Part shown: in pieces, positions 1-41,326 of the stretch | How positions within the stretch are numbered: the stretch's first letter is position 1 | Layout of the letters: every line of letters starts with the position of its first letter | From: a virus | Lineage: Duplodnaviria > Heunggongvirae > Uroviricota > Caudoviricetes | DNA length: 41,326 nt | Strand: one strand, 5' to 3' | IMG/VR virus record: IMGVR_UViG_2718218397_000001 | Program-made: the position numbers and the translations under genes | The notes under the pieces: model-generated | What the model was told of the DNA's origin: nothing | Databases searched by the model: none | What the model saw: only the letters and a program-made list of their open reading frames with translations

Positions 1-1248
1 ATGGCACTGAATATTCCATTCAGAAATGCGTACTATCGTTTTGCATCCAGTTACTCATTTCTCTTTTTTATTTCCTGGTCGCTGTGGTGGTCGTTATACG
101 CTATTTGGCTGAAAGGACATCTAGGGTTGACAGGGACGGAATTAGGTACACTTTATTCGGTCAACCAGTTTACCAGCATTCTATTTATGATGTTCTACGG
201 CATCGTTCAGGATAAACTCGGTCTGAAGAAACCGCTCATCTGGTGTATGAGTTTCATCCTGGTCTTGACCGGACCGTTTATGATTTACGTTTATGAACCG
301 TTACTGCAAAGCAATTTTTCTGTAGGTCTAATTCTGGGGGCGCTATTTTTTGGCTTGGGGTATCTGGCGGGATGCGGTTTGCTTGATAGCTTCACCGAAA
401 AAATGGCGCGAAATTTTCATTTCGAATATGGAACAGCGCGCGCCTGGGGATCTTTTGGCTATGCTATTGGCGCGTTCTTTGCCGGCATATTTTTTAGTAT
501 CAGTCCCCATATCAACTTCTGGTTGGTCTCGCTATTTGGCGCTGTATTTATGATGATCAACATGCGTTTTAAAGATAAGGATCACCAGTGCGTAGCGGCA
601 GATGCGGGAGGGGTAAAAAAAGAGGATTTTATCGCAGTTTTCAAGGATCGAAACTTCTGGGTTTTCGTCATATTTATTGTGGGGACGTGGTCTTTCTATA
701 ACATTTTTGATCAACAACTTTTTCCTGTCTTTTATGCAGGTTTATTCGAATCACACGATGTAGGAACGCGCCTGTATGGTTATCTCAACTCATTCCAGGT
801 GGTACTCGAAGCGCTGTGCATGGCGATTATTCCTTTCTTTGTGAATCGGGTAGGGCCAAAAAATGCATTACTTATCGGAGTTGTGATTATGGCGTTGCGT
901 ATCCTTTCCTGCGCGCTGTTCGTTAACCCCTGGATTATTTCATTAGTGAAGTTGTTACATGCCATTGAGGTTCCACTTTGTGTCATATCCGTCTTCAAAT
1001 ACAGCGTGGCAAACTTTGATAAGCGCCTGTCGTCGACGATCTTTCTGATTGGTTTTCAAATTGCCAGTTCGCTTGGGATTGTGCTGCTTTCAACGCCGAC
1101 TGGGATACTCTTTGACCACGCAGGCTACCAGACAGTTTTCTTCGCAATTTCGGGTATTGTCTGCCTGATGTTGCTATTTGGCATTTTCTTCTTGAGTAAA
1201 AAACGCGAGCAAATAGTTATGGAAACGCCTGTACCTTCAGCAATATAG
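1..1248 (+). CDS. cscB: LacY-family oligosaccharide/H+ symporter, sucrose permease-like (host gene)
   Basis: 415-aa ORF, multi-pass hydrophobic profile, LacY-like motifs; I recall this sequence as CscB, and csc loci are known to sit next to argW. Confidence 0.75.
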   Translation: MALNIPFRNAYYRFASSYSFLFFISWSLWWSLYAIWLKGHLGLTGTELGTLYSVNQFTSILFMMFYGIVQDKLGLKKPLIWCMSFILVLTGPFMIYVYEPLLQSNFSVGLILGALFFGLGYLAGCGLLDSFTEKMARNFHFEYGTARAWGSFGYAIGAFFAGIFFSISPHINFWLVSLFGAVFMMINMRFKDKDHQCVAADAGGVKKEDFIAVFKDRNFWVFVIFIVGTWSFYNIFDQQLFPVFYAGLFESHDVGTRLYGYLNSFQVVLEALCMAIIPFFVNRVGPKNALLIGVVIMALRILSCALFVNPWIISLVKLLHAIEVPLCVISVFKYSVANFDKRLSSTIFLIGFQIASSLGIVLLSTPTGILFDHAGYQTVFFAISGIVCLMLLFGIFFLSKKREQIVMETPVPSAI

Positions 1249-1689
1249 ACGTAAACTTTTTCCGGTTGTTGTCGATAGCTCTATATCCCTCAACCGGAAA
1301 ATAATAATAGTAAAATGCTTAGCCCTGCTAATAATCGCCTAATCCAAACGCCTCATTCATGTTCTGGTACAGTCGCTCAAATGTACTTCAGATGCGCGGT
1401 TCGCTGATTTCCAGGACATTGTCGTCATTCAGTGACCTGTCCCGTGTATCACGGTCCTGCGAATTCATCAAGGAATGCATTGCGGAGTGAAGTATCGAGT
1501 CACGCCATATTTCGCTATCAGGATTCTGTGTGATGGTTACATCGCCCGGCCCAGGGCTGTTTAGTCATCAGCGCTTTCTGACAGTGCTGAGATTTCAACC
1601 TGTTGCAGTAAAAATGAGTAGATATAAGGCAAGTGTGCTGCCAAACCCATCTTTTACGGGGTGAAGGTAGATTTCGTTTGAAGGGTATC

Positions 1690-1704
1690 TGGTGTCCCCT
1701 GCAG
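1690..1704 (-). other. Prophage attachment core: 15-nt copy of the 3' end of tRNA-Arg (argW), reverse complement CTGCAGGGGACACCA
   Basis: Plus strand reads tggtgtcccctgcag; the tRNA-like sequence breaks immediately to the right, where phage DNA begins. Confidence 0.55.
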
Positions 1705-1777
1705 ACATCTACTTGACGAGGCAGGGGATTGATTAGAATGGTGTTTTTTAGATGTGAGAAATATTTTACCCGCTATT

Positions 1778-1978
1778 TTACCCATTGGCGCGGCTTAAAA
1801 GCTTATTTTTGAATTCACAATGGTCACGATATAACCATCTTGCTCGTCCGTGGATAACTTTGGCTTTAGGCAGGTCTCCGGACTTAATCCGGTCATAGAT
1901 GAAGGTTTTACCAAAGCCAGTATCAGCCATGATGAATTTCAAATCAACCAGTGAATCAGGCTGTAGTTCGTGTTGCAT
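1778..1978 (-). CDS. AlpA-like excisionase / DNA-binding regulator
   Basis: 66-aa ORF, small HTH-type protein adjacent to att core; resembles the AlpA/Xis family. Confidence 0.55.
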   Translation of the reverse strand: MQHELQPDSLVDLKFIMADTGFGKTFIYDRIKSGDLPKAKVIHGRARWLYRDHCEFKNKLLSRANG

Positions 1979-2023
1979 GAGTGCTATCTCCGAATAGGGA
2001 ATCGAACCTGCAAATCAGGTAAT

Positions 2024-2043
2024 AAAAAACCGCCATCAGGCGG
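2024..2043 (-). terminator. Putative intrinsic terminator (minus strand)
   Basis: ccgcc-atca-ggcgg hairpin followed on the minus strand by a T-run (plus aaaaaa). Confidence 0.4.
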
Positions 2044-2203
2044 CTTGGTGTTCTTTCAGTTCTTCAATTCGAATATTGGTTACGTCTGCATTCGCTATCT
2101 GCGCCCATATCATCCAGTGGTTATAGCAGTCGTTGATGTCCTCTGCTTCGATAACCCTGTCGAATGGCTCTCCATTCCATTCACCTGTGACTCGGAAGTG
2201 CAT
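2036..2203 (-). CDS. Hypothetical small protein (55 aa)
   Basis: ATG-initiated ORF read by hand, ends in the terminator hairpin; not in the ORF track (below 60 aa). Confidence 0.3.
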   Translation of the reverse strand: MHFRVTGEWNGEPFDRVIEAEDINDCYNHWMIWAQIANADVTNIRIEELKEHQAA

Positions 2204-2361
2204 TTATCATCTCCATAAAACAAAACTCGCCGTAGCGAGTTCAGATAAAAGAAATCCCCGCGAGTGCGAGGAATGTTATTGTCTTTTCTTCGTGCATTTG
2301 TCGCACTTTCGGCACCATCCAGATAGGCACATCCGTCCGCAATTAACACATATAGGCCACA

Positions 2362-2640
2362 TCATTTTTCCTCTTTTGGTTTATGAATCTGAATGGTCAT
2401 GCCGCTTTGAGTGGTGACTACAATGACAGAACCAGGCTGAAGACTGTTAAGATTGAATGCTTCGTAAAACGAATCCAATGCCAGTGCTTTTTTATTCTTT
2501 CGGTTCCACCAACGCCATCCCCTGCTACAGGCCATGTTGACAATCCACTGCCCACTCCTGTAAGCCATATAAAACCAGATAAGCAAAACCTGAAGGAATG
2601 CTATCCAGTCAATGATCGTATATTTCGCGAAGGAGTCCAT
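2362..2640 (-). CDS. Hypothetical small membrane protein
   Basis: ORF 2362..2691; internal Met at 2640 overlaps the stop of the upstream gene; hydrophobic segment IIDWIAFLQVLLIWFYMAY. Confidence 0.4.
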   Translation of the reverse strand: MDSFAKYTIIDWIAFLQVLLIWFYMAYRSGQWIVNMACSRGWRWWNRKNKKALALDSFYEAFNLNSLQPGSVIVVTTQSGMTIQIHKPKEEK

Positions 2641-2852: not shown

Positions 2853-3376
2853 GACTTCACCTCCTGTTTCGGCGCTGCTGGCATTTCACGCCAGTGCGTA
2901 ACTGAGTGCGGATCCGGATATTCGGTGCCATCATCCCAGCGATTGCCATTCCACATTGCAGACCACATCTCACCGTCTTCATACATGACCATTACCGGAA
3001 TTAACTTATCTGGCATTCGCTCACTACAGCTTATCCAACCATCCGGAGTTACCGGCACTGGCTGGGCGGTATAAAGCGGTGTTATATCTGCCCGAAAATT
3101 ACATGCTTTATGCATCCGCACCCACCGTTCGACTTCTGCTTTGTCAGGATACATGCCAGTGAACGTGTTATATTCACGGTCAATTTGCGTGAAGGTTACC
3201 TTCCACGCCACCGGCTCTGCTTCCAGAGATGCCAGTGCAATTCGTGCCAGTTCCATTTGTTCGCCACGAGTAAGTCCGTTATCAAGCGGATTTTTAATGA
3301 ATAATTTGATACGTTCTTTGGTTATAGCGCTCATATCACTCTCCTTTGATGCGAATGCCAGTAGCGCGGATTGCAT
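2849..3376 (-). CDS. DUF551-like phage protein
   Basis: 175-aa ORF with a Trp-rich C-terminus (MWSAMWNGNRWDDGTEYPD) that I read as DUF551-like. Confidence 0.5.
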   Translation of the reverse strand: MQSALLAFASKESDMSAITKERIKLFIKNPLDNGLTRGEQMELARIALASLEAEPVAWKVTFTQIDREYNTFTGMYPDKAEVERWVRMHKACNFRADITPLYTAQPVPVTPDGWISCSERMPDKLIPVMVMYEDGEMWSAMWNGNRWDDGTEYPDPHSVTHWREMPAAPKQEVKS

Positions 3377-18410: not shown

Positions 18411-18485
18411 GGGTCAGTCGTATAAAGGTCATTACGGAAGGCTGTTAACCTTCTTATCGTGGTTCGAGTCCACGCTGTCCCGCCA
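18411..18485 (+). tRNA. tRNA-like gene, anticodon GUU (Asn) by manual folding; two stem mismatches
   Basis: Cloverleaf folds by hand: anticodon loop CUGUUAA, T-arm cgtgg-TTCGAGT-ccacg, 3' CCA; U-U mismatch in acceptor stem. Confidence 0.5.
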
Positions 18486-18490
18486 AATAT

Positions 18491-18566
18491 GCTGGTTTAG
18501 CTCCAATGGTAGAGCAGTCGCCTTGTAAGCGAATGGGTAGCGGTTCAAGTCCGTTAACCAGCACCA
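18491..18566 (+). tRNA. tRNA-Thr (anticodon UGU) by manual folding
   Basis: Perfect 7-bp acceptor stem, D-arm gctc/gagc, anticodon loop CUUGUAA, T-loop TTCAAGT, encoded CCA. Confidence 0.6.
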
Positions 18567-36368: not shown

Positions 36369-36489
36369 CCTTGATGCCTCACCAGTTGGGTGGAATGGCA
36401 TCGTAACTTACTGGATAAATACTCAATAGTACCATTTCGGTATGCAATCACATCATGGTTGCATCATATCATTCGTCTGGAGCAATGAA

Positions 36490-38691
36490 ATGTCAGATAT
36501 CACCGCAAATGTTGTGGTAAGCATGCCTTCGCAACTCTTCACTATGGCTCGTTCTTTTAAAGCCGTAGCCAATGGCAAAATTTATATCGGTAAAATTGAC
36601 ACGGACCCGGTAAATCCTGAAAACCAGATTCAGGTTTATGTGGAGAACGAAGATGGTTCTCACGTCCCTGTTTCGCAACCAATCATCATTAATGCTGCTG
36701 GTTATCCGGTATATAACGGACAGATTGCCAAATTCGTAACTGTGCAAGGCCATTCTATGGCTGTTTACGATGCGTATGGCGTACAGCAATTCTATTTCCC
36801 TAATGTGCTGAAGTATGACCCTGACAGATTACAACAGCGACTTATTAGTCACTTGGATGGAAATGGAGATGCTTTAGTTGCTACTAAGCAACCTATTGCA
36901 GGGGCGAAAGATAAAACAGTACATGATTGGATTGCTGAGCATGTTTCTATTAAAGACATGTATGGTGTTATTGGTGATGGTGTTAACGATGATGCGCCTT
37001 ATATAATTACTGCACTATCCAACCTATTGATATCCTGTAATCCTATTGTATTTGTCCCTGGAACATATCTCATAAATTCAGACATTACATTTGATATCCC
37101 TGTGACATTTATTCGTGGAGCTGTATTAAAAGTAAGAAATGGTGCCGTAGTTAAATTTAATGCAGAAATTGATGCTGGAAGGTATGAGATATTTGACACA
37201 GAAGATGACTTTTTCAATAATTACTTAGAAACTCCATCTGTTAAGATACCAAATGGACCTGTTCGTATTGAGTGGTTTGGAGCTAAATCAGTAAGTAGTT
37301 ATGCAGATATAGCGTCAGCACATGATTGTTCAGATGCTTTTTTAAAGGCATGGCATGCAACATGCGGAGAATTTAATGTGGAAATAACTCCTGGTGCTCT
37401 TTATCAGTCAGAGTTTTATCATTCATATGTATCTTTATCATCAGGAAAATATAGAATGGATAAAAATCTAAAACTATGGCATAGGGTTATTTCGCCATCT
37501 ATCATCAGATATAATAAAAATGGAGGGGGGATAATTGGTGATGGAATGGGGTTGTCAATTCTTGTTTTTACAGATCCTAAGTATGAAGGAAATGCTTATG
37601 TTGAACTCAGTGATATGAGCGGAGAGATGCATGAGTTTCGTGATTTTAAAGTGACATTCTATGATCCAAATGCTACAGGAGATGATATATATTTTGGTAG
37701 AGCTGGGGCTTGCATTCTGTTCTCTAGCGCAGATAGTATAGTTACAAAGAATATATGGGCTGCTGGAGCAAAATATCTTCGCACTGATATTGATGGGGTT
37801 CGTAGGGGTGGTGTGGGTATACAATTTGAGTCATTGGTAGACCATTTTTTCGAGAATCTATTAGTAGAGCACTGTATAAACGGTATTGCATTTAGTTCCT
37901 GTGTTTCAAATGGTTTTAACATTAAGGGATTCTCTAATAGAGTATCTGATCTGGCATTTGGTAATTATATACCAGCATGGCCAGATCTAATCACGCAAAA
38001 TGGCGTAAATCTTGTATCTGTTTCTGGCATGGAGAGCAAGGCATGTCCTGCAACTCCTATTTATTTTGGGACGGTTGATAACAGGGTTAACATAACTAAT
38101 GTTAATATTAAAGGAAATGCAGAATCATCATCTTCAATAGTAACATTTAGAGCCATTGCGTTTAACCATGCTGGGGCCGGTGCAGTAGGATTGATTCAGG
38201 GCAATGTTATGAATGTGAACTACGGTCTTATTGATGACGGTGGAACAGCTTTTGCTGGTAAATCTGGTTCACCATTAAGACTAACTTTTAATGTTTATAA
38301 TGTTGCAGGGAATTCCGCAACAGAAACAGCTGTTGCTGTATTCAAAAACCCTTTGTCTAATGTCGATATTGATTTAGGTGTGAATGGCGCATTGTTTCCT
38401 GCGCTTATTAGCTCATGTAATTACGCCATAGCCAGAATTAATATTGTTGGTATCACTGGGTCAAACTCAGCTCCCTACGTGGCATTCGGATGCAATGCAG
38501 GAATATTAATAATTAGAAGTTTGAAAGCATCAGGAAGTTCAGCGGCATACCTTGGCTATGCAGGAGGATCGTCTCAAGTCATTCTTCCATCTGCAATGTC
38601 AGCTGATATCACACTGGTTAGGAAAGGTTCAGGCTCTTCTGCTGATATAAGGCAGGAATCATCTTCACCTTACAACAATATTCAGTCTTAA
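36490..38691 (+). CDS. Tailspike: P22-type N-terminal head-binding domain fused to a different receptor-binding domain
   Basis: [43 protein letters not shown] matches P22 gp9 N-terminus; remainder Gly/Asn/Ser-rich and AT-rich. Confidence 0.85.
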
Positions 38692-38725
38692 ATTCAAAAA
38701 ATAAATATCATTTTTTAATAAAAAA

Positions 38726-38760
38726 GGCATGCATACAAACTATAACTGCATGCCATTTTT
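38726..38760. terminator. Bidirectional terminator between convergent tailspike and oac
   Basis: ggcatgca...tgcatgcc hairpin flanked by A-run upstream and T-run downstream. Confidence 0.55.
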
Positions 38761-38762
38761 AA

Positions 38763-39755
38763 TCAATTGCTTATTTTATTGTATATTTTTATTGTTGTAA
38801 AATATGCGATAAAGAAACATAAGAAAGTGTATAATATAGTGTCTATAGAGTTATGCAGATACACCTTCAAACCAATCATTTTGAAAGATGAATAAATAAA
38901 TGTTTTAAGCATTTGCTCTGTTCCGCAAAGCACTAGAGTTGATTGCCCTATTAATATAACTTGCTTTATCTTTATGCGCTTTGCAATGGTAATGTTTGGG
39001 ATAAATAGCGCTGCCGTTATAATAAACGATGCAAGTATTTTTAAATATTCGTTTTTAATTCCATTATATATTGAGGCTGCCCCATAAAAATAAACATAAA
39101 TAAATAACGCCATCGACAATGAGCAAATTATGTAAGAGGTTATTTTTGATGTTAGGTTGCCATTATATTCTTGTGGCTCTTTAATATAACAGGAAAGGTA
39201 TGCGCCCAAAGCATAATAAGCAATATACCTTAAAGCGCTGTCAATATTAAAAAACAACTTTGGCTGAACACCTATTTTCATAATTGAAGAAACAAAGAAT
39301 ATCGCAATGCATGTTATGAAAATAAGATGCCTATTCTTTATTATAAGCTGTATAAATGAGTGCATCATTATAATAACAAACAAACATGGAAGAAACCAAA
39401 GTGATGCAGCAAATATGTGGTTTCTGATTCCTGGTATTATCTGGCTGGCAAGCTCTCTTACCTGATGGAAGTCATAATTATAGTATAGAGAAAAGAAAAT
39501 AAGGGAAATAAGCGAGAATGTAAAATACGGTATCAGTATCCTTTTTGAGGATTTAATCGCTATAATATTAAAATCATATAGAGAAGAGCATTTTTTAAAA
39601 AAAATCCCGGAAATAAAAAAGAATAACGGGACGTGAAATGAAAACACAAAAGGATATAACTGCTTTGCATTATCGCCAAAGTGTCCTAAGTAAATCCAAA
39701 ATATGGCCACTGCCTTTAATGAATCAATCCATTCTAAACGATGGTTGGCATTCAT
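38763..39755 (-). CDS. oac: O-antigen acetyltransferase (acyltransferase-3 family, Sf6 Oac-like)
   Basis: 330 aa, many TM segments, N-terminal RLEWIDSLKAVAIFWIYLGHF motif; very AT-rich; next to tailspike and int. Confidence 0.75.
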   Translation of the reverse strand: MNANHRLEWIDSLKAVAIFWIYLGHFGDNAKQLYPFVFSFHVPLFFFISGIFFKKCSSLYDFNIIAIKSSKRILIPYFTFSLISLIFFSLYYNYDFHQVRELASQIIPGIRNHIFAASLWFLPCLFVIIMMHSFIQLIIKNRHLIFITCIAIFFVSSIMKIGVQPKLFFNIDSALRYIAYYALGAYLSCYIKEPQEYNGNLTSKITSYIICSLSMALFIYVYFYGAASIYNGIKNEYLKILASFIITAALFIPNITIAKRIKIKQVILIGQSTLVLCGTEQMLKTFIYSSFKMIGLKVYLHNSIDTILYTFLCFFIAYFTTIKIYNKISN

Positions 39756-40168: not shown

Positions 40169-41326
40169 TCAGGAGAACTTTTCATCAATCCAGTCCGCCC
40201 ACCACTGCATCATTTCTCTGCGCTTATCGAGATACTGAGCATGGTTGTAAATACCGCGCACAGATCCGCCGTTGGCATGTGCAAGTTGCACTTCAATGGC
40301 GTCGGCAGGCCATTCGTGCTCGTTCATAATCGTGCTGAATTCATGCCTGAATCCGTGACCGCTTTCCAGACCCTCATAGCCGATTTGTTTGATCACAAGT
40401 AGCACCGCGTTCTCGCAGATTGGCTTTTTCTTATCGTTGCGCCCGGCAAAAACAAACTCTGATACTGGTTTAGTGATGGAGCTTAGCGTAGTGAGAAGTT
40501 CAACCACCTGGTCCGACATCGGGACCACATGAATTTTGCGGCCCTTCATCACACTGGCGTCGATGGTGATAATCCTGTTTTCAAAATCGACGTTCTTCCA
40601 TAGCATAGAACGAAGCTCTTTCGTTCTTAGGGCTGTGTAGCGTAAAACTTTGGTCGCAATGAGCGATACGATACTTCCTGAAAATGTTGCCAGTGCTTTG
40701 TTGAATGCAGGGATCTGGTCTGCAGGTAAAAACGGGAAGTTCTTCTTGCGGTATCCCTTCATGGCGTCTGCAAGGTCAGGTGCCGGGTTATATTTAGCCC
40801 TTCCGGTGACAATAGCGTAACGGAAAACCTCGCCGCATCTTCTGCGTGCTTTGTTGGCTCGCTCCATTGCACCGCGATCTTCAAATCTGCGGATTACTTC
40901 CAGCAGTTGCATCGGCTCAATATCCTGAATTTCAAGACCACCGATGATGGGTAAAATGTCGTCATCAAACATTTTGGCAAGTTCAGTTGCATAGCCTACT
41001 GACCAGACTTGCTTCTTGTGCTCGTACCATTCCTTGTAAATGGCACTAAAGGAATTGTTGTTAGACGAAGCCTTTTTCGCTTTTACCGGATCGATGCCAA
41101 CCGAGATGTCTTTCCTCGCGGTCCATGCTTTATCTCTTGCCTCCTGCAAAGTCATAAGCGGATATTTTCCTACGGTCAGTATTTTTTCCTTACCGTCAAT
41201 CTTGTAGCGAAGCTGCCATACCTTTTTCCCGGATACAGGGACATAAAGGTACAGGCCATTACCATCGAGAAGGCGGTATGGTTTTTCTTTCGGCTTTGCT
41301 GCTTCAATCTGCTTAACGGTGAGCAT
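40169..41326 (-). CDS. intS: Tyrosine integrase, P4 type (IntS-like); start at window edge
   Basis: 385-aa ORF I recognise as E. coli CPS-53 IntS-like (MLTVKQIEAAKPKEKPYRLLDGNGLYLYV...). Confidence 0.85.
   Translation of the reverse strand: MLTVKQIEAAKPKEKPYRLLDGNGLYLYVPVSGKKVWQLRYKIDGKEKILTVGKYPLMTLQEARDKAWTARKDISVGIDPVKAKKASSNNNSFSAIYKEWYEHKKQVWSVGYATELAKMFDDDILPIIGGLEIQDIEPMQLLEVIRRFEDRGAMERANKARRRCGEVFRYAIVTGRAKYNPAPDLADAMKGYRKKNFPFLPADQIPAFNKALATFSGSIVSLIATKVLRYTALRTKELRSMLWKNVDFENRIITIDASVMKGRKIHVVPMSDQVVELLTTLSSITKPVSEFVFAGRNDKKKPICENAVLLVIKQIGYEGLESGHGFRHEFSTIMNEHEWPADAIEVQLAHANGGSVRGIYNHAQYLDKRREMMQWWADWIDEKFS

Follow-up and report, generated by a model that had tools for sequence, protein, structure and literature searches.

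The IntS/TorI recombination module

Lambda-type att sites consist of a C-O-C' core, arm-type sites and Xis sites. The attR/pawZ site of the Escherichia coli K-12 prophage KplE1, together with torI, was reportedly described by Panis, Mejean and Ansaldi in 2007. KplE1 (CPS-53) lies in argW, is bordered by a duplicated 16-nt core, CTGCAGGGGACACCAT, and carries intS and torI at opposite ends, and its recombination module is common to HK620, Sf6 and CUS-3 (Panis et al. 2010, PMC2951348). Kapi1 uses the same site and has the same split between int and xis (preprint 10.1101/2021.11.03.467220). The published P' arm-type sites of the integrase carry a conserved TAAA. The sites for TorI are 8-mers with GTTCG, GATCG or GTCCG as their basis, five of which lie on the P' arm and overlap PintS, the promoter that TorI represses, and excision in this family is regarded as being switched mainly by the control of torI expression (PMC2951348). 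The module is like the att site of a lambda-type heterobivalent integrase in its P-arm arm-type repeats, its core with a short overlap and its DNA-bending recombination directionality factor (PMC2951348), but differs in having the Xis sites on the P' arm and in having xis separated from int by attP.

The DNA analysed here is a stretch of 41,326 nt from a virus of the Caudoviricetes (IMG/VR record IMGVR_UViG_2718218397_000001), referred to as a whole as the window. It contains the attR, the int-distal junction, of a P22-like prophage with the published IntS/TorI module of KplE1/CPS-53, HK620, Sf6 and Kapi1, and the prophage sits in the 3' end of argW, upstream of the csc (sucrose) locus. The att junction is already known and confirms a textbook module; a first-pass annotation made from the sequence had correctly read an att junction here but did not recognise the region as the published KplE1/HK620/Sf6 module. 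What appears to be an undescribed though conserved element of this well-studied module is a copy of the argW T-arm, the T-arm box, in the leader of torI. The account as a whole, an attR of the IntS/TorI module with a constrained box derived from the argW T-arm and an inferred role for that box as an integrase half-site, is on balance probable.

The locus shares with KplE1 attR/pawZ the core, the argW target, two GGGTAAAA arm sites, the T-arm box, the leader and the split int/xis layout across attP. It differs in belonging to a full-length P22-like phage whereas KplE1 is a 10-kb remnant, in its chromosomal flank, which is csc here and dsdC at KplE1, and in the tL4-type terminator that precedes the box, where K-12 has ypdJ/yfdT sequence. 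The attP regions of HK620, Sf6 and Kapi1 are 96-97% identical in DNA over 1690..2083 or further and have the same order of box, torI, arm sites and core, but in the free phage DNA the core runs on into the P' arm and int.

The attR junction in argW

The attR core, CTGCAGGGGACACCA, occupies 1690..1704 on the minus strand and equals the last 15 nt of the tRNA-Arg(CCU) gene argW as read in a relative, strain JNE082640. It occurs once in the window, even allowing two mismatches (0.03 occurrences expected), and represents 15 of the 16 bases of the published att core of KplE1/CPS-53, HK620 and Sf6 (PMC2951348). The 16-mer is labelled 'attP core' in the HK620 record and the 15-mer is labelled as the pseudogene pawZ in K-12. 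Base 1689 is a G of the csc chromosomal background where the published core has T, and the att identity is therefore 15 nt here and not 16. Similarity to the tRNA stops at 1705, where the window reads agtagatgt against GTTCGATTC in the tRNA, just as had been noted from the sequence. The part common to the tRNA and to every attP and attR variant examined, from other genera and from phages, is TGCAGGGGACA (1703..1693), which confines strand exchange to that interval.

The boundary was placed by means of a synthetic empty site of 542 nt, in which the yfdC-argW sequence of JNE082640 up to the CCA was joined to the window from 1689 downward. This sequence is present in one piece and at 100% identity in many E. 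coli genomes, with 1415 genomes matching at a coverage of at least 80%, and the reconstruction sets the boundary between prophage and chromosome at 1689|1690. The uninterrupted argW locus thus aligns exactly to the junction, which bears out the first-pass reading of 1690..1704 as the argW 3' end at the att site distal to the integrase. The chromosomal flank (B' side) is 1249..1689, between the prophage junction and a gene at 1..1248 (plus strand) for a 415-aa MFS permease, which we take to be CscB-like. The window segment 1250..2300 matches more than 4,000 E. coli genomes, in which the features under the match are annotated as torI or 'response regulator inhibitor TorI'.

At the other end the window stops on the start codon of int, and the position of argW was therefore read in JNE082640, the closest relative, and not in the source genome. 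In that strain intS is followed by 162 bp, tRNA-Arg (argW) and then yfdC, and argW reads ...GGGCTAATTGCAGGTTCGATTCCTGCAGGGGACACCA, after which comes TTTATCAG, from the P' arm of the phage. The window edge at 41326 would be followed closely by PintS, the P' arm, attL and argW; the expected arrangement is PintS and a P' arm with five GTTCG-type sites, then an intact argW ending ...TTGCAGGTTCGATTCCTGCAGGGGACACCATTTATC. The TorI sites can be read in the relative (L004) as CAGTTCGC, CAGTCCGC, TAGTTCGT, TGGTTCGC and CAGATCGT.

Some attR regions end differently. In Escherichia sp. E1V33 (L010, about 3275..3300) and in two further loci (L013 and L021) the tRNA identity stops at ...GGGGACA, with no CCA, and these flanks may represent the arm of another element, inserted in tandem, or a secondary site. 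The attP sites of phiEt88 and Chronis also have no CCA, so that an argW gene with no CCA of its own encoded would result at their attL.

Organisation of the integration module

Read on the minus strand, in the direction of the tRNA, the order is early-left genes, a tL4-type terminator, the T-arm box, a Shine-Dalgarno sequence and torI, and then, on the same strand, two GGGTAAAA arm-type integrase sites, an inverted repeat, the putative C site, the 15-nt core and the chromosome. The torI gene (hkaC, Sf6 gene 18) occupies 1778..1978 on the minus strand and encodes a 66-aa excisionase, the recombination directionality factor, as assigned by homology and from PMC3509656. Its product begins MQHELQPDSLVDLKFIMADTGFGK and is 98-100% identical to proteins named TorI, and its Shine-Dalgarno sequence GGAG, read directly at 1988..1991 (minus strand), is kept in the leader alignment. 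At the opposite end of the prophage is intS (40169..41326, minus strand), transcribed in the direction of the tRNA and encoding a 385-aa tyrosine integrase of the P4 family, the start codon of which is the last three bases of the window; the match of this end to annotated intS is at 94-98% DNA identity. The placement of int and xis at opposite ends is as had been proposed, and the two flank attP.

A search for arm-type integrase repeats near 1700..1780, which the first-pass annotation had suggested, found GGGTAAAA twice in direct orientation on the minus strand, at 1783..1776, where it overlaps the torI stop codon, and at 1771..1764. Both repeats are invariant in an alignment of 13 diverged modules and match the TAAA of the published P' arm-type sites. 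Between the arm and the core is a putative P-side core-type integrase site (C), AAGTAGATGT at 1705..1714 (minus strand), so assigned from the alignment and from its location beside the overlap region; in most other genera the site is ATTCGATGT, a degenerate copy of the T-loop, whereas E. coli has AAGTAGATGT. The P arm is connected with the core by an inverted repeat, TCCCCTGC at 1721..1728 (minus strand), which is separated by 18 nt from the GCAGGGGA of the core (1702..1695). This repeat is 89% complementary in the 13 modules and shows two compensatory changes, in Rouxiella (CCCCTAC/GTAGGGG) and in Edwardsiella (TCCCTGC/GCAGGGA), and is possibly an extra integrase site or an RNA hairpin after torI. 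A 43-aa open reading frame at 1654..1785 (minus strand), equivalent to hkaB of HK620 and gene 17 of Sf6, which cross attP in the free phage, spans the att core; its 3' part is replaced by chromosomal sequence in the prophage and it is therefore probably not a gene.

Upstream of the box an intrinsic terminator at 2020..2046 (minus strand), a homologue of the HK022 'tL4', closes the early-left (ea) region. In lambdoid phages that carry a different integration module, HK022, mEp213 and Stx phages among them, homology to the window begins only at about 2016..2024 (query position 327-335) and runs rightward, and the stretch shared with them consists of the tL4-type terminator and the upstream early-left gene. 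This left mosaic edge makes the T-arm box the first element of the integration module.

Elsewhere in the window two phage-borne tRNA genes, tRNA-Asn(GTT) and tRNA-Thr(TGT), lie 5 nt apart at 18411..18566 (plus strand), and a pair of tRNAs immediately ahead of the lysis genes has been described in Kapi1. The interval 36442..39755, with the tail genes on one side and intS on the other, holds an open reading frame for a 749-aa tailspike-like protein (plus strand) and one for a 330-aa membrane acyltransferase (minus strand). In Sf6- and Kapi1-like phages this is where genes for O-antigen modification (seroconversion) usually lie.

The T-arm box in the torI leader

The T-arm box, TTGCAGGTTCGATTCC, lies at 1998..2013 on the minus strand, with a conserved centre, AGGTTCGATTCC, at 2009..1998. 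It occurs only once in the window and is an exact 16-nt copy of argW, comprising the TT of the variable loop, the 5' strand of the T-stem, the T-loop and CC. The first-pass annotation had read a T-arm-like 19-mer, atttgcaggttcgattccc, at about 1998..2016; the reading of the bases was correct but the match to argW is limited to the inner 16 nt. Box and core together tile the tRNA's 3' end as ...TTGCAGGTTCGATTC|CTGCAGGGGACACCA, with one C in common. By our own estimate (about 1,000 positions multiplied by 4^-16), the chance expectation is about 1e-7 for an exact 16-mer of the target tRNA that has the same orientation, is contiguous in tRNA coordinates and lies about 290 bp from the core. The exactness of the match, its orientation and its tiling with the core show that the box is no chance resemblance and that it derives from the argW T-arm; the suggestion that it might be a coincidental T-loop consensus is thereby rejected.

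The box falls in the 5' UTR of torI, 6-7 nt upstream of the Shine-Dalgarno sequence in all haplotypes, and is identical in K-12 KplE1, Sf6, HK620 and S88. In the HK620 and Sf6 records its bases are annotated as a putative pI promoter/cII site or fall within 'boundary sequence bsq2', and not as tRNA-derived. No tRNA gene was found by ARAGORN near 1690..2016, the only ones in the window being the tRNA-Asn and tRNA-Thr genes described above. A tRNA gene or pseudogene was rejected for this region: the tRNA sequence is split into a 15-nt and a 16-nt piece, the 3' strand of the T-arm is missing after the box and there is no cloverleaf. Tandem integration, integration into a phage-borne pseudo-attB and Int-mediated exchange between attP and attR were likewise considered as origins of the box and rejected, since none of them gives the order of box, torI, P arm and core without an extra illegitimate join.

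Conservation of the T-arm box

Homologues of TorI were collected and aligned, the loci from other species were fetched and phage records and IMG/VR cases were added. In Enterobacter, a MAG, Serratia fonticola, Citrobacter, two Pantoea and Edwardsiella the sequence (A)GGTTCGATT(C/T)C is kept while the rest of the leader is unalignable, and all eight modules compared keep GGTTCGATT(C/T)C. These modules are well diverged: at third codon positions of torI most pairs are 48-68% identical, with Edwardsiella and P. stewartii the closest at 0.86, only 8 of 35 synonymous third positions are invariant and the longest invariant coding run is 9 nt. Among nine leader haplotypes from several genera pairwise identity is 0.96 in the motif, against 0.31 and 0.41 in the 12-nt flanks. 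The probability of nine consecutive invariant neutral sites is about 2e-6, or about 3e-4 after scanning 150 positions.

Further carriers of the box are a Hafnia-type leader, the phages Midgardsormr38 and phiEt88 and a prophage end (L052). In Erwinia phage Midgardsormr38 (L031, 1952..1990) the box is in tandem with a 16-nt period, CAGGTTCGATTCCCGT CAGGTTCGATTCCCAC, directly before the Shine-Dalgarno sequence of xis. The Erwinia phage phiEt88 keeps the box with an Xis only 39% identical and with P'-arm sites of a GTAAC type, not a GTTCG type; its integrase is 74% identical to IntS, with the greatest divergence in the N-terminal arm-binding part, and the TGCAGGGGACA core is shared. In L052 the box accompanies a xis that is TorI-like but only distantly related (phmmer E=7e-15), and the arm sites differ. 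L015 and L052 have near-identical leaders despite their different xis genes, and part of the conservation accordingly reflects mosaic exchange rather than independent retention.

The box is missing from several apparently intact modules, those of Klebsiella phage Chronis, Erwinia EhrS_49, Salmonella Emek and the Dryocola, Arsenophonus and Proteus loci, which indicates that it is dispensable for recombination. The near-invariance of AGGTTCGATTCC in nine xis leaders that are otherwise unalignable shows that this 12-nt centre is under sequence constraint across the modules of Enterobacterales, and the box is accordingly constrained where it is present and not essential to the module. It tracks the integrase family and the tRNA target, and not Xis. 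The conserved feature is the primary sequence and not an RNA structure.

Two caveats of scope apply to the searches. The IMG/VR search pattern fixed the motif itself, and those matches are uninformative on polymorphism of the box within E. coli. A scan of IMG/VR for an analogous box with the common T-loop, GGTTCGAATCC followed by a Shine-Dalgarno sequence and ATG, returned only true tRNA genes before unrelated open reading frames, none of which matched the TorI profile, the pattern being narrow and of low power. Comparators at other tRNAs were sought in AlpA genes of the Pseudomonas F116/phi297 type, which are convergent with int and have no attP between, and these are not comparable.

Possible functions of the T-arm box

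The preferred reading, which is put forward tentatively, is that the box acts at the level of the DNA, as an additional left core half-site of the attB type (B) for an integrase of the IntS family. The AGGTTCGATTCC box may, with the same reserve, be seen as a functional cis element borrowed from the T-arm of the target tRNA, an isolated attB-type integrase half-site that restrains the excisionase or shapes the intasome. This is suggested by the way in which the box tracks the integrase and the tRNA target and by its identity with the segment of the tRNA immediately left of the core, the segment where the B core-type site of attB must lie; the C site of attP is likewise TTCGAT-like in most genera. 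The C and C' sites suggest that the integrase recognises roughly GRTGT beside the overlap, whereas the box has GATTC and would therefore be a weak site. The conservation of AGG at the 5' side of the box is not obviously explained by integrase recognition and counts against the half-site. A predicted isolated attB-like half-site 290 bp from the core has no counterpart in lambda.

Integrase is made constitutively in lysogens and could contact the box with its core-binding and catalytic domains and at the same time, with its N-terminal domain, hold the arm sites just downstream of torI. Bound in this manner to the box and the arm sites it would enclose torI from both sides and dampen expression of the excisionase by read-through. 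Alternatively, the box would contribute to the architecture of the intasome in vivo.

Autoregulation of the excisionase, with the box as an operator for TorI (Xis), is unlikely. TorI, whose sites are 8-mers that use GTTCG, GATCG or GTCCG, represses PintS (PMC2951348), and the GGTTCG of the box is the same as the middle of site I4 (TGGTTCGC); another pentamer resembling GTTCG (ATTCG, GTTCG or GTCCG) follows 12 nt downstream in five of the eight leaders and an inverted TAGTTCGT is found at codons 3-6 of torI. However, the conserved stretch of 12 nt (AGGTTCGATTCC) goes well beyond a degenerate TorI 8-mer, the 12-nt spacing compares with 10 or 20 nt in known sites and there is no detectable promoter for the box to control. 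The persistence of the box in phiEt88, with its divergent Xis and GTAAC-type P'-arm sites, also counts against this candidate: the content of the box does not follow the DNA specificity of Xis.

Distinctly unlikely is a role in the leader of the torI mRNA, where the box would control translation or processing as a mimic of the T-arm or as an anti-Shine-Dalgarno sequence in which UUCC pairs with GGAG. The location in the 5' UTR, at a constant 6-7 nt from the Shine-Dalgarno sequence, would suit such a role, the UUCC/GGAG pairing can form in all eight sequences and a T-arm-like hairpin is possible in the phiEt88, Edwardsiella and Serratia versions. The consensus fold of the eight sequences, however, amounts to only -0.68 kcal/mol with no compensatory change or covariation, a T-arm helix test gave 60% pairing where shuffled sequences gave 59.4%, the terminator is the only fold of the E. 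coli leader and no Rfam family reaches threshold. The Rfam search of 1928..2055 (plus strand) returned only a sub-threshold match to STnc130, a Salmonella sRNA, with 24 bits against a gathering score of 55. This match runs antisense to the box and to the start of torI, seems to owe its score to the bidirectional hairpin of the terminator and probably has no meaning.

There is a similarly small chance that the box is a functionless, neutral relic of an ancestral attP in which the whole argW T-arm was contiguous with the core, its survival being due solely to recent common ancestry and mosaic exchange of the leader. The box is indeed derived from the tRNA and similarity fades outward from it, the 5' side reading TTGC, TTCC, TTAC or TGAC and the CCTG of the 3' side being retained only in Serratia and Pantoea. 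It is also missing from several modules, Enterobacter L012 and Dryocola L016 differing by a clean indel of about 34 nt, and the near-identical leaders of L015 and L052 precede different xis genes. Against a relic stand the contrast between motif and unalignable flanks in the nine haplotypes (0.96 against 0.31 and 0.41), the near-saturated synonymous sites in the adjacent torI, the low probability of the invariant run (about 2e-6, or 3e-4 after scanning) and the tandem duplication of the box in Midgardsormr38. The first-pass suggestion of a relic of an ancestral attP was thus right as to derivation from argW, but the 12-nt centre, near invariant across modules with unalignable flanks, is not a decaying sequence.

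That the box belongs to a promoter ('pI', with a cII site) is very improbable. The GenBank records of HK620 and Sf6 do place a putative integration promoter and cII site over it, and by our own reading several haplotypes have a -35-like TTGCAG, TTCCAG, TTTACA or TGACAG 17-18 nt upstream of GAGATA. Nevertheless, a scan of 1600..2400 found no sigma-70-like site, the would-be -10, GAGATA, has no T at its sixth position and overlaps the Shine-Dalgarno sequence, so that transcripts would be made without a ribosome-binding site, and direct reading finds a single TTGC in place of TTGC-N6-TTGC. A promoter upstream of xis would moreover co-express Xis with Int, contrary to what an integration promoter is for, and a promoter of intS itself has been mapped in the P' arm (PMC2951348).

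That the box is a real or alternative att crossover core, as in the GenBank record of CUS-3 (CP000711), where box and argW T-arm, a perfect 16-nt direct repeat when the latter is taken at attL, are labelled 'attR core' and 'attL core' and the record stops at the box, is scarcely credible: the empty site sets the junction at 1689|1690 with torI and the P arm between it and the box, torI also lies between box and core in the free-phage attP of HK620, Sf6 and Kapi1, K-12 carries torI and the true core beyond the box as well, and a 135-bp attR that excludes the box, starting at the torI 3' end with primer attR-IHF2, recombines in vitro (PMC3509656).

Implications for CUS-3 and for control of excision

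CUS-3 is among the phages with the KplE1 module (PMC2951348) and CP000711 shows the same integrase family, argW site and box. Its record, bounded by the 16-nt T-arm repeat (L001 1..16, L002 1..16), was compared with a CUS-3-type prophage in S88 (L030, 870..1195), in which torI and the CTGCAGGGGACACCAT core are found about 300 bp past the end of the record. It follows that CP000711 mis-delimits the prophage and omits torI, the P arm and the true core, all three of which CUS-3-type prophages of sequenced K1 strains do carry. The repeat shared by the box and argW has therefore already caused at least one reference prophage to be wrongly delimited, leaving CUS-3 without its excisionase and true attR, and automated att callers that use terminal direct repeats at argW will repeat the 300-bp error.

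With regard to the biology of the family, a constrained, tRNA-derived box between the terminator and the ribosome-binding site of torI is an obvious candidate for a part in the control of torI. If the box does act as an integrase half-site, it would add a third layer of control to the 'split int/xis' paradigm described for KplE1.
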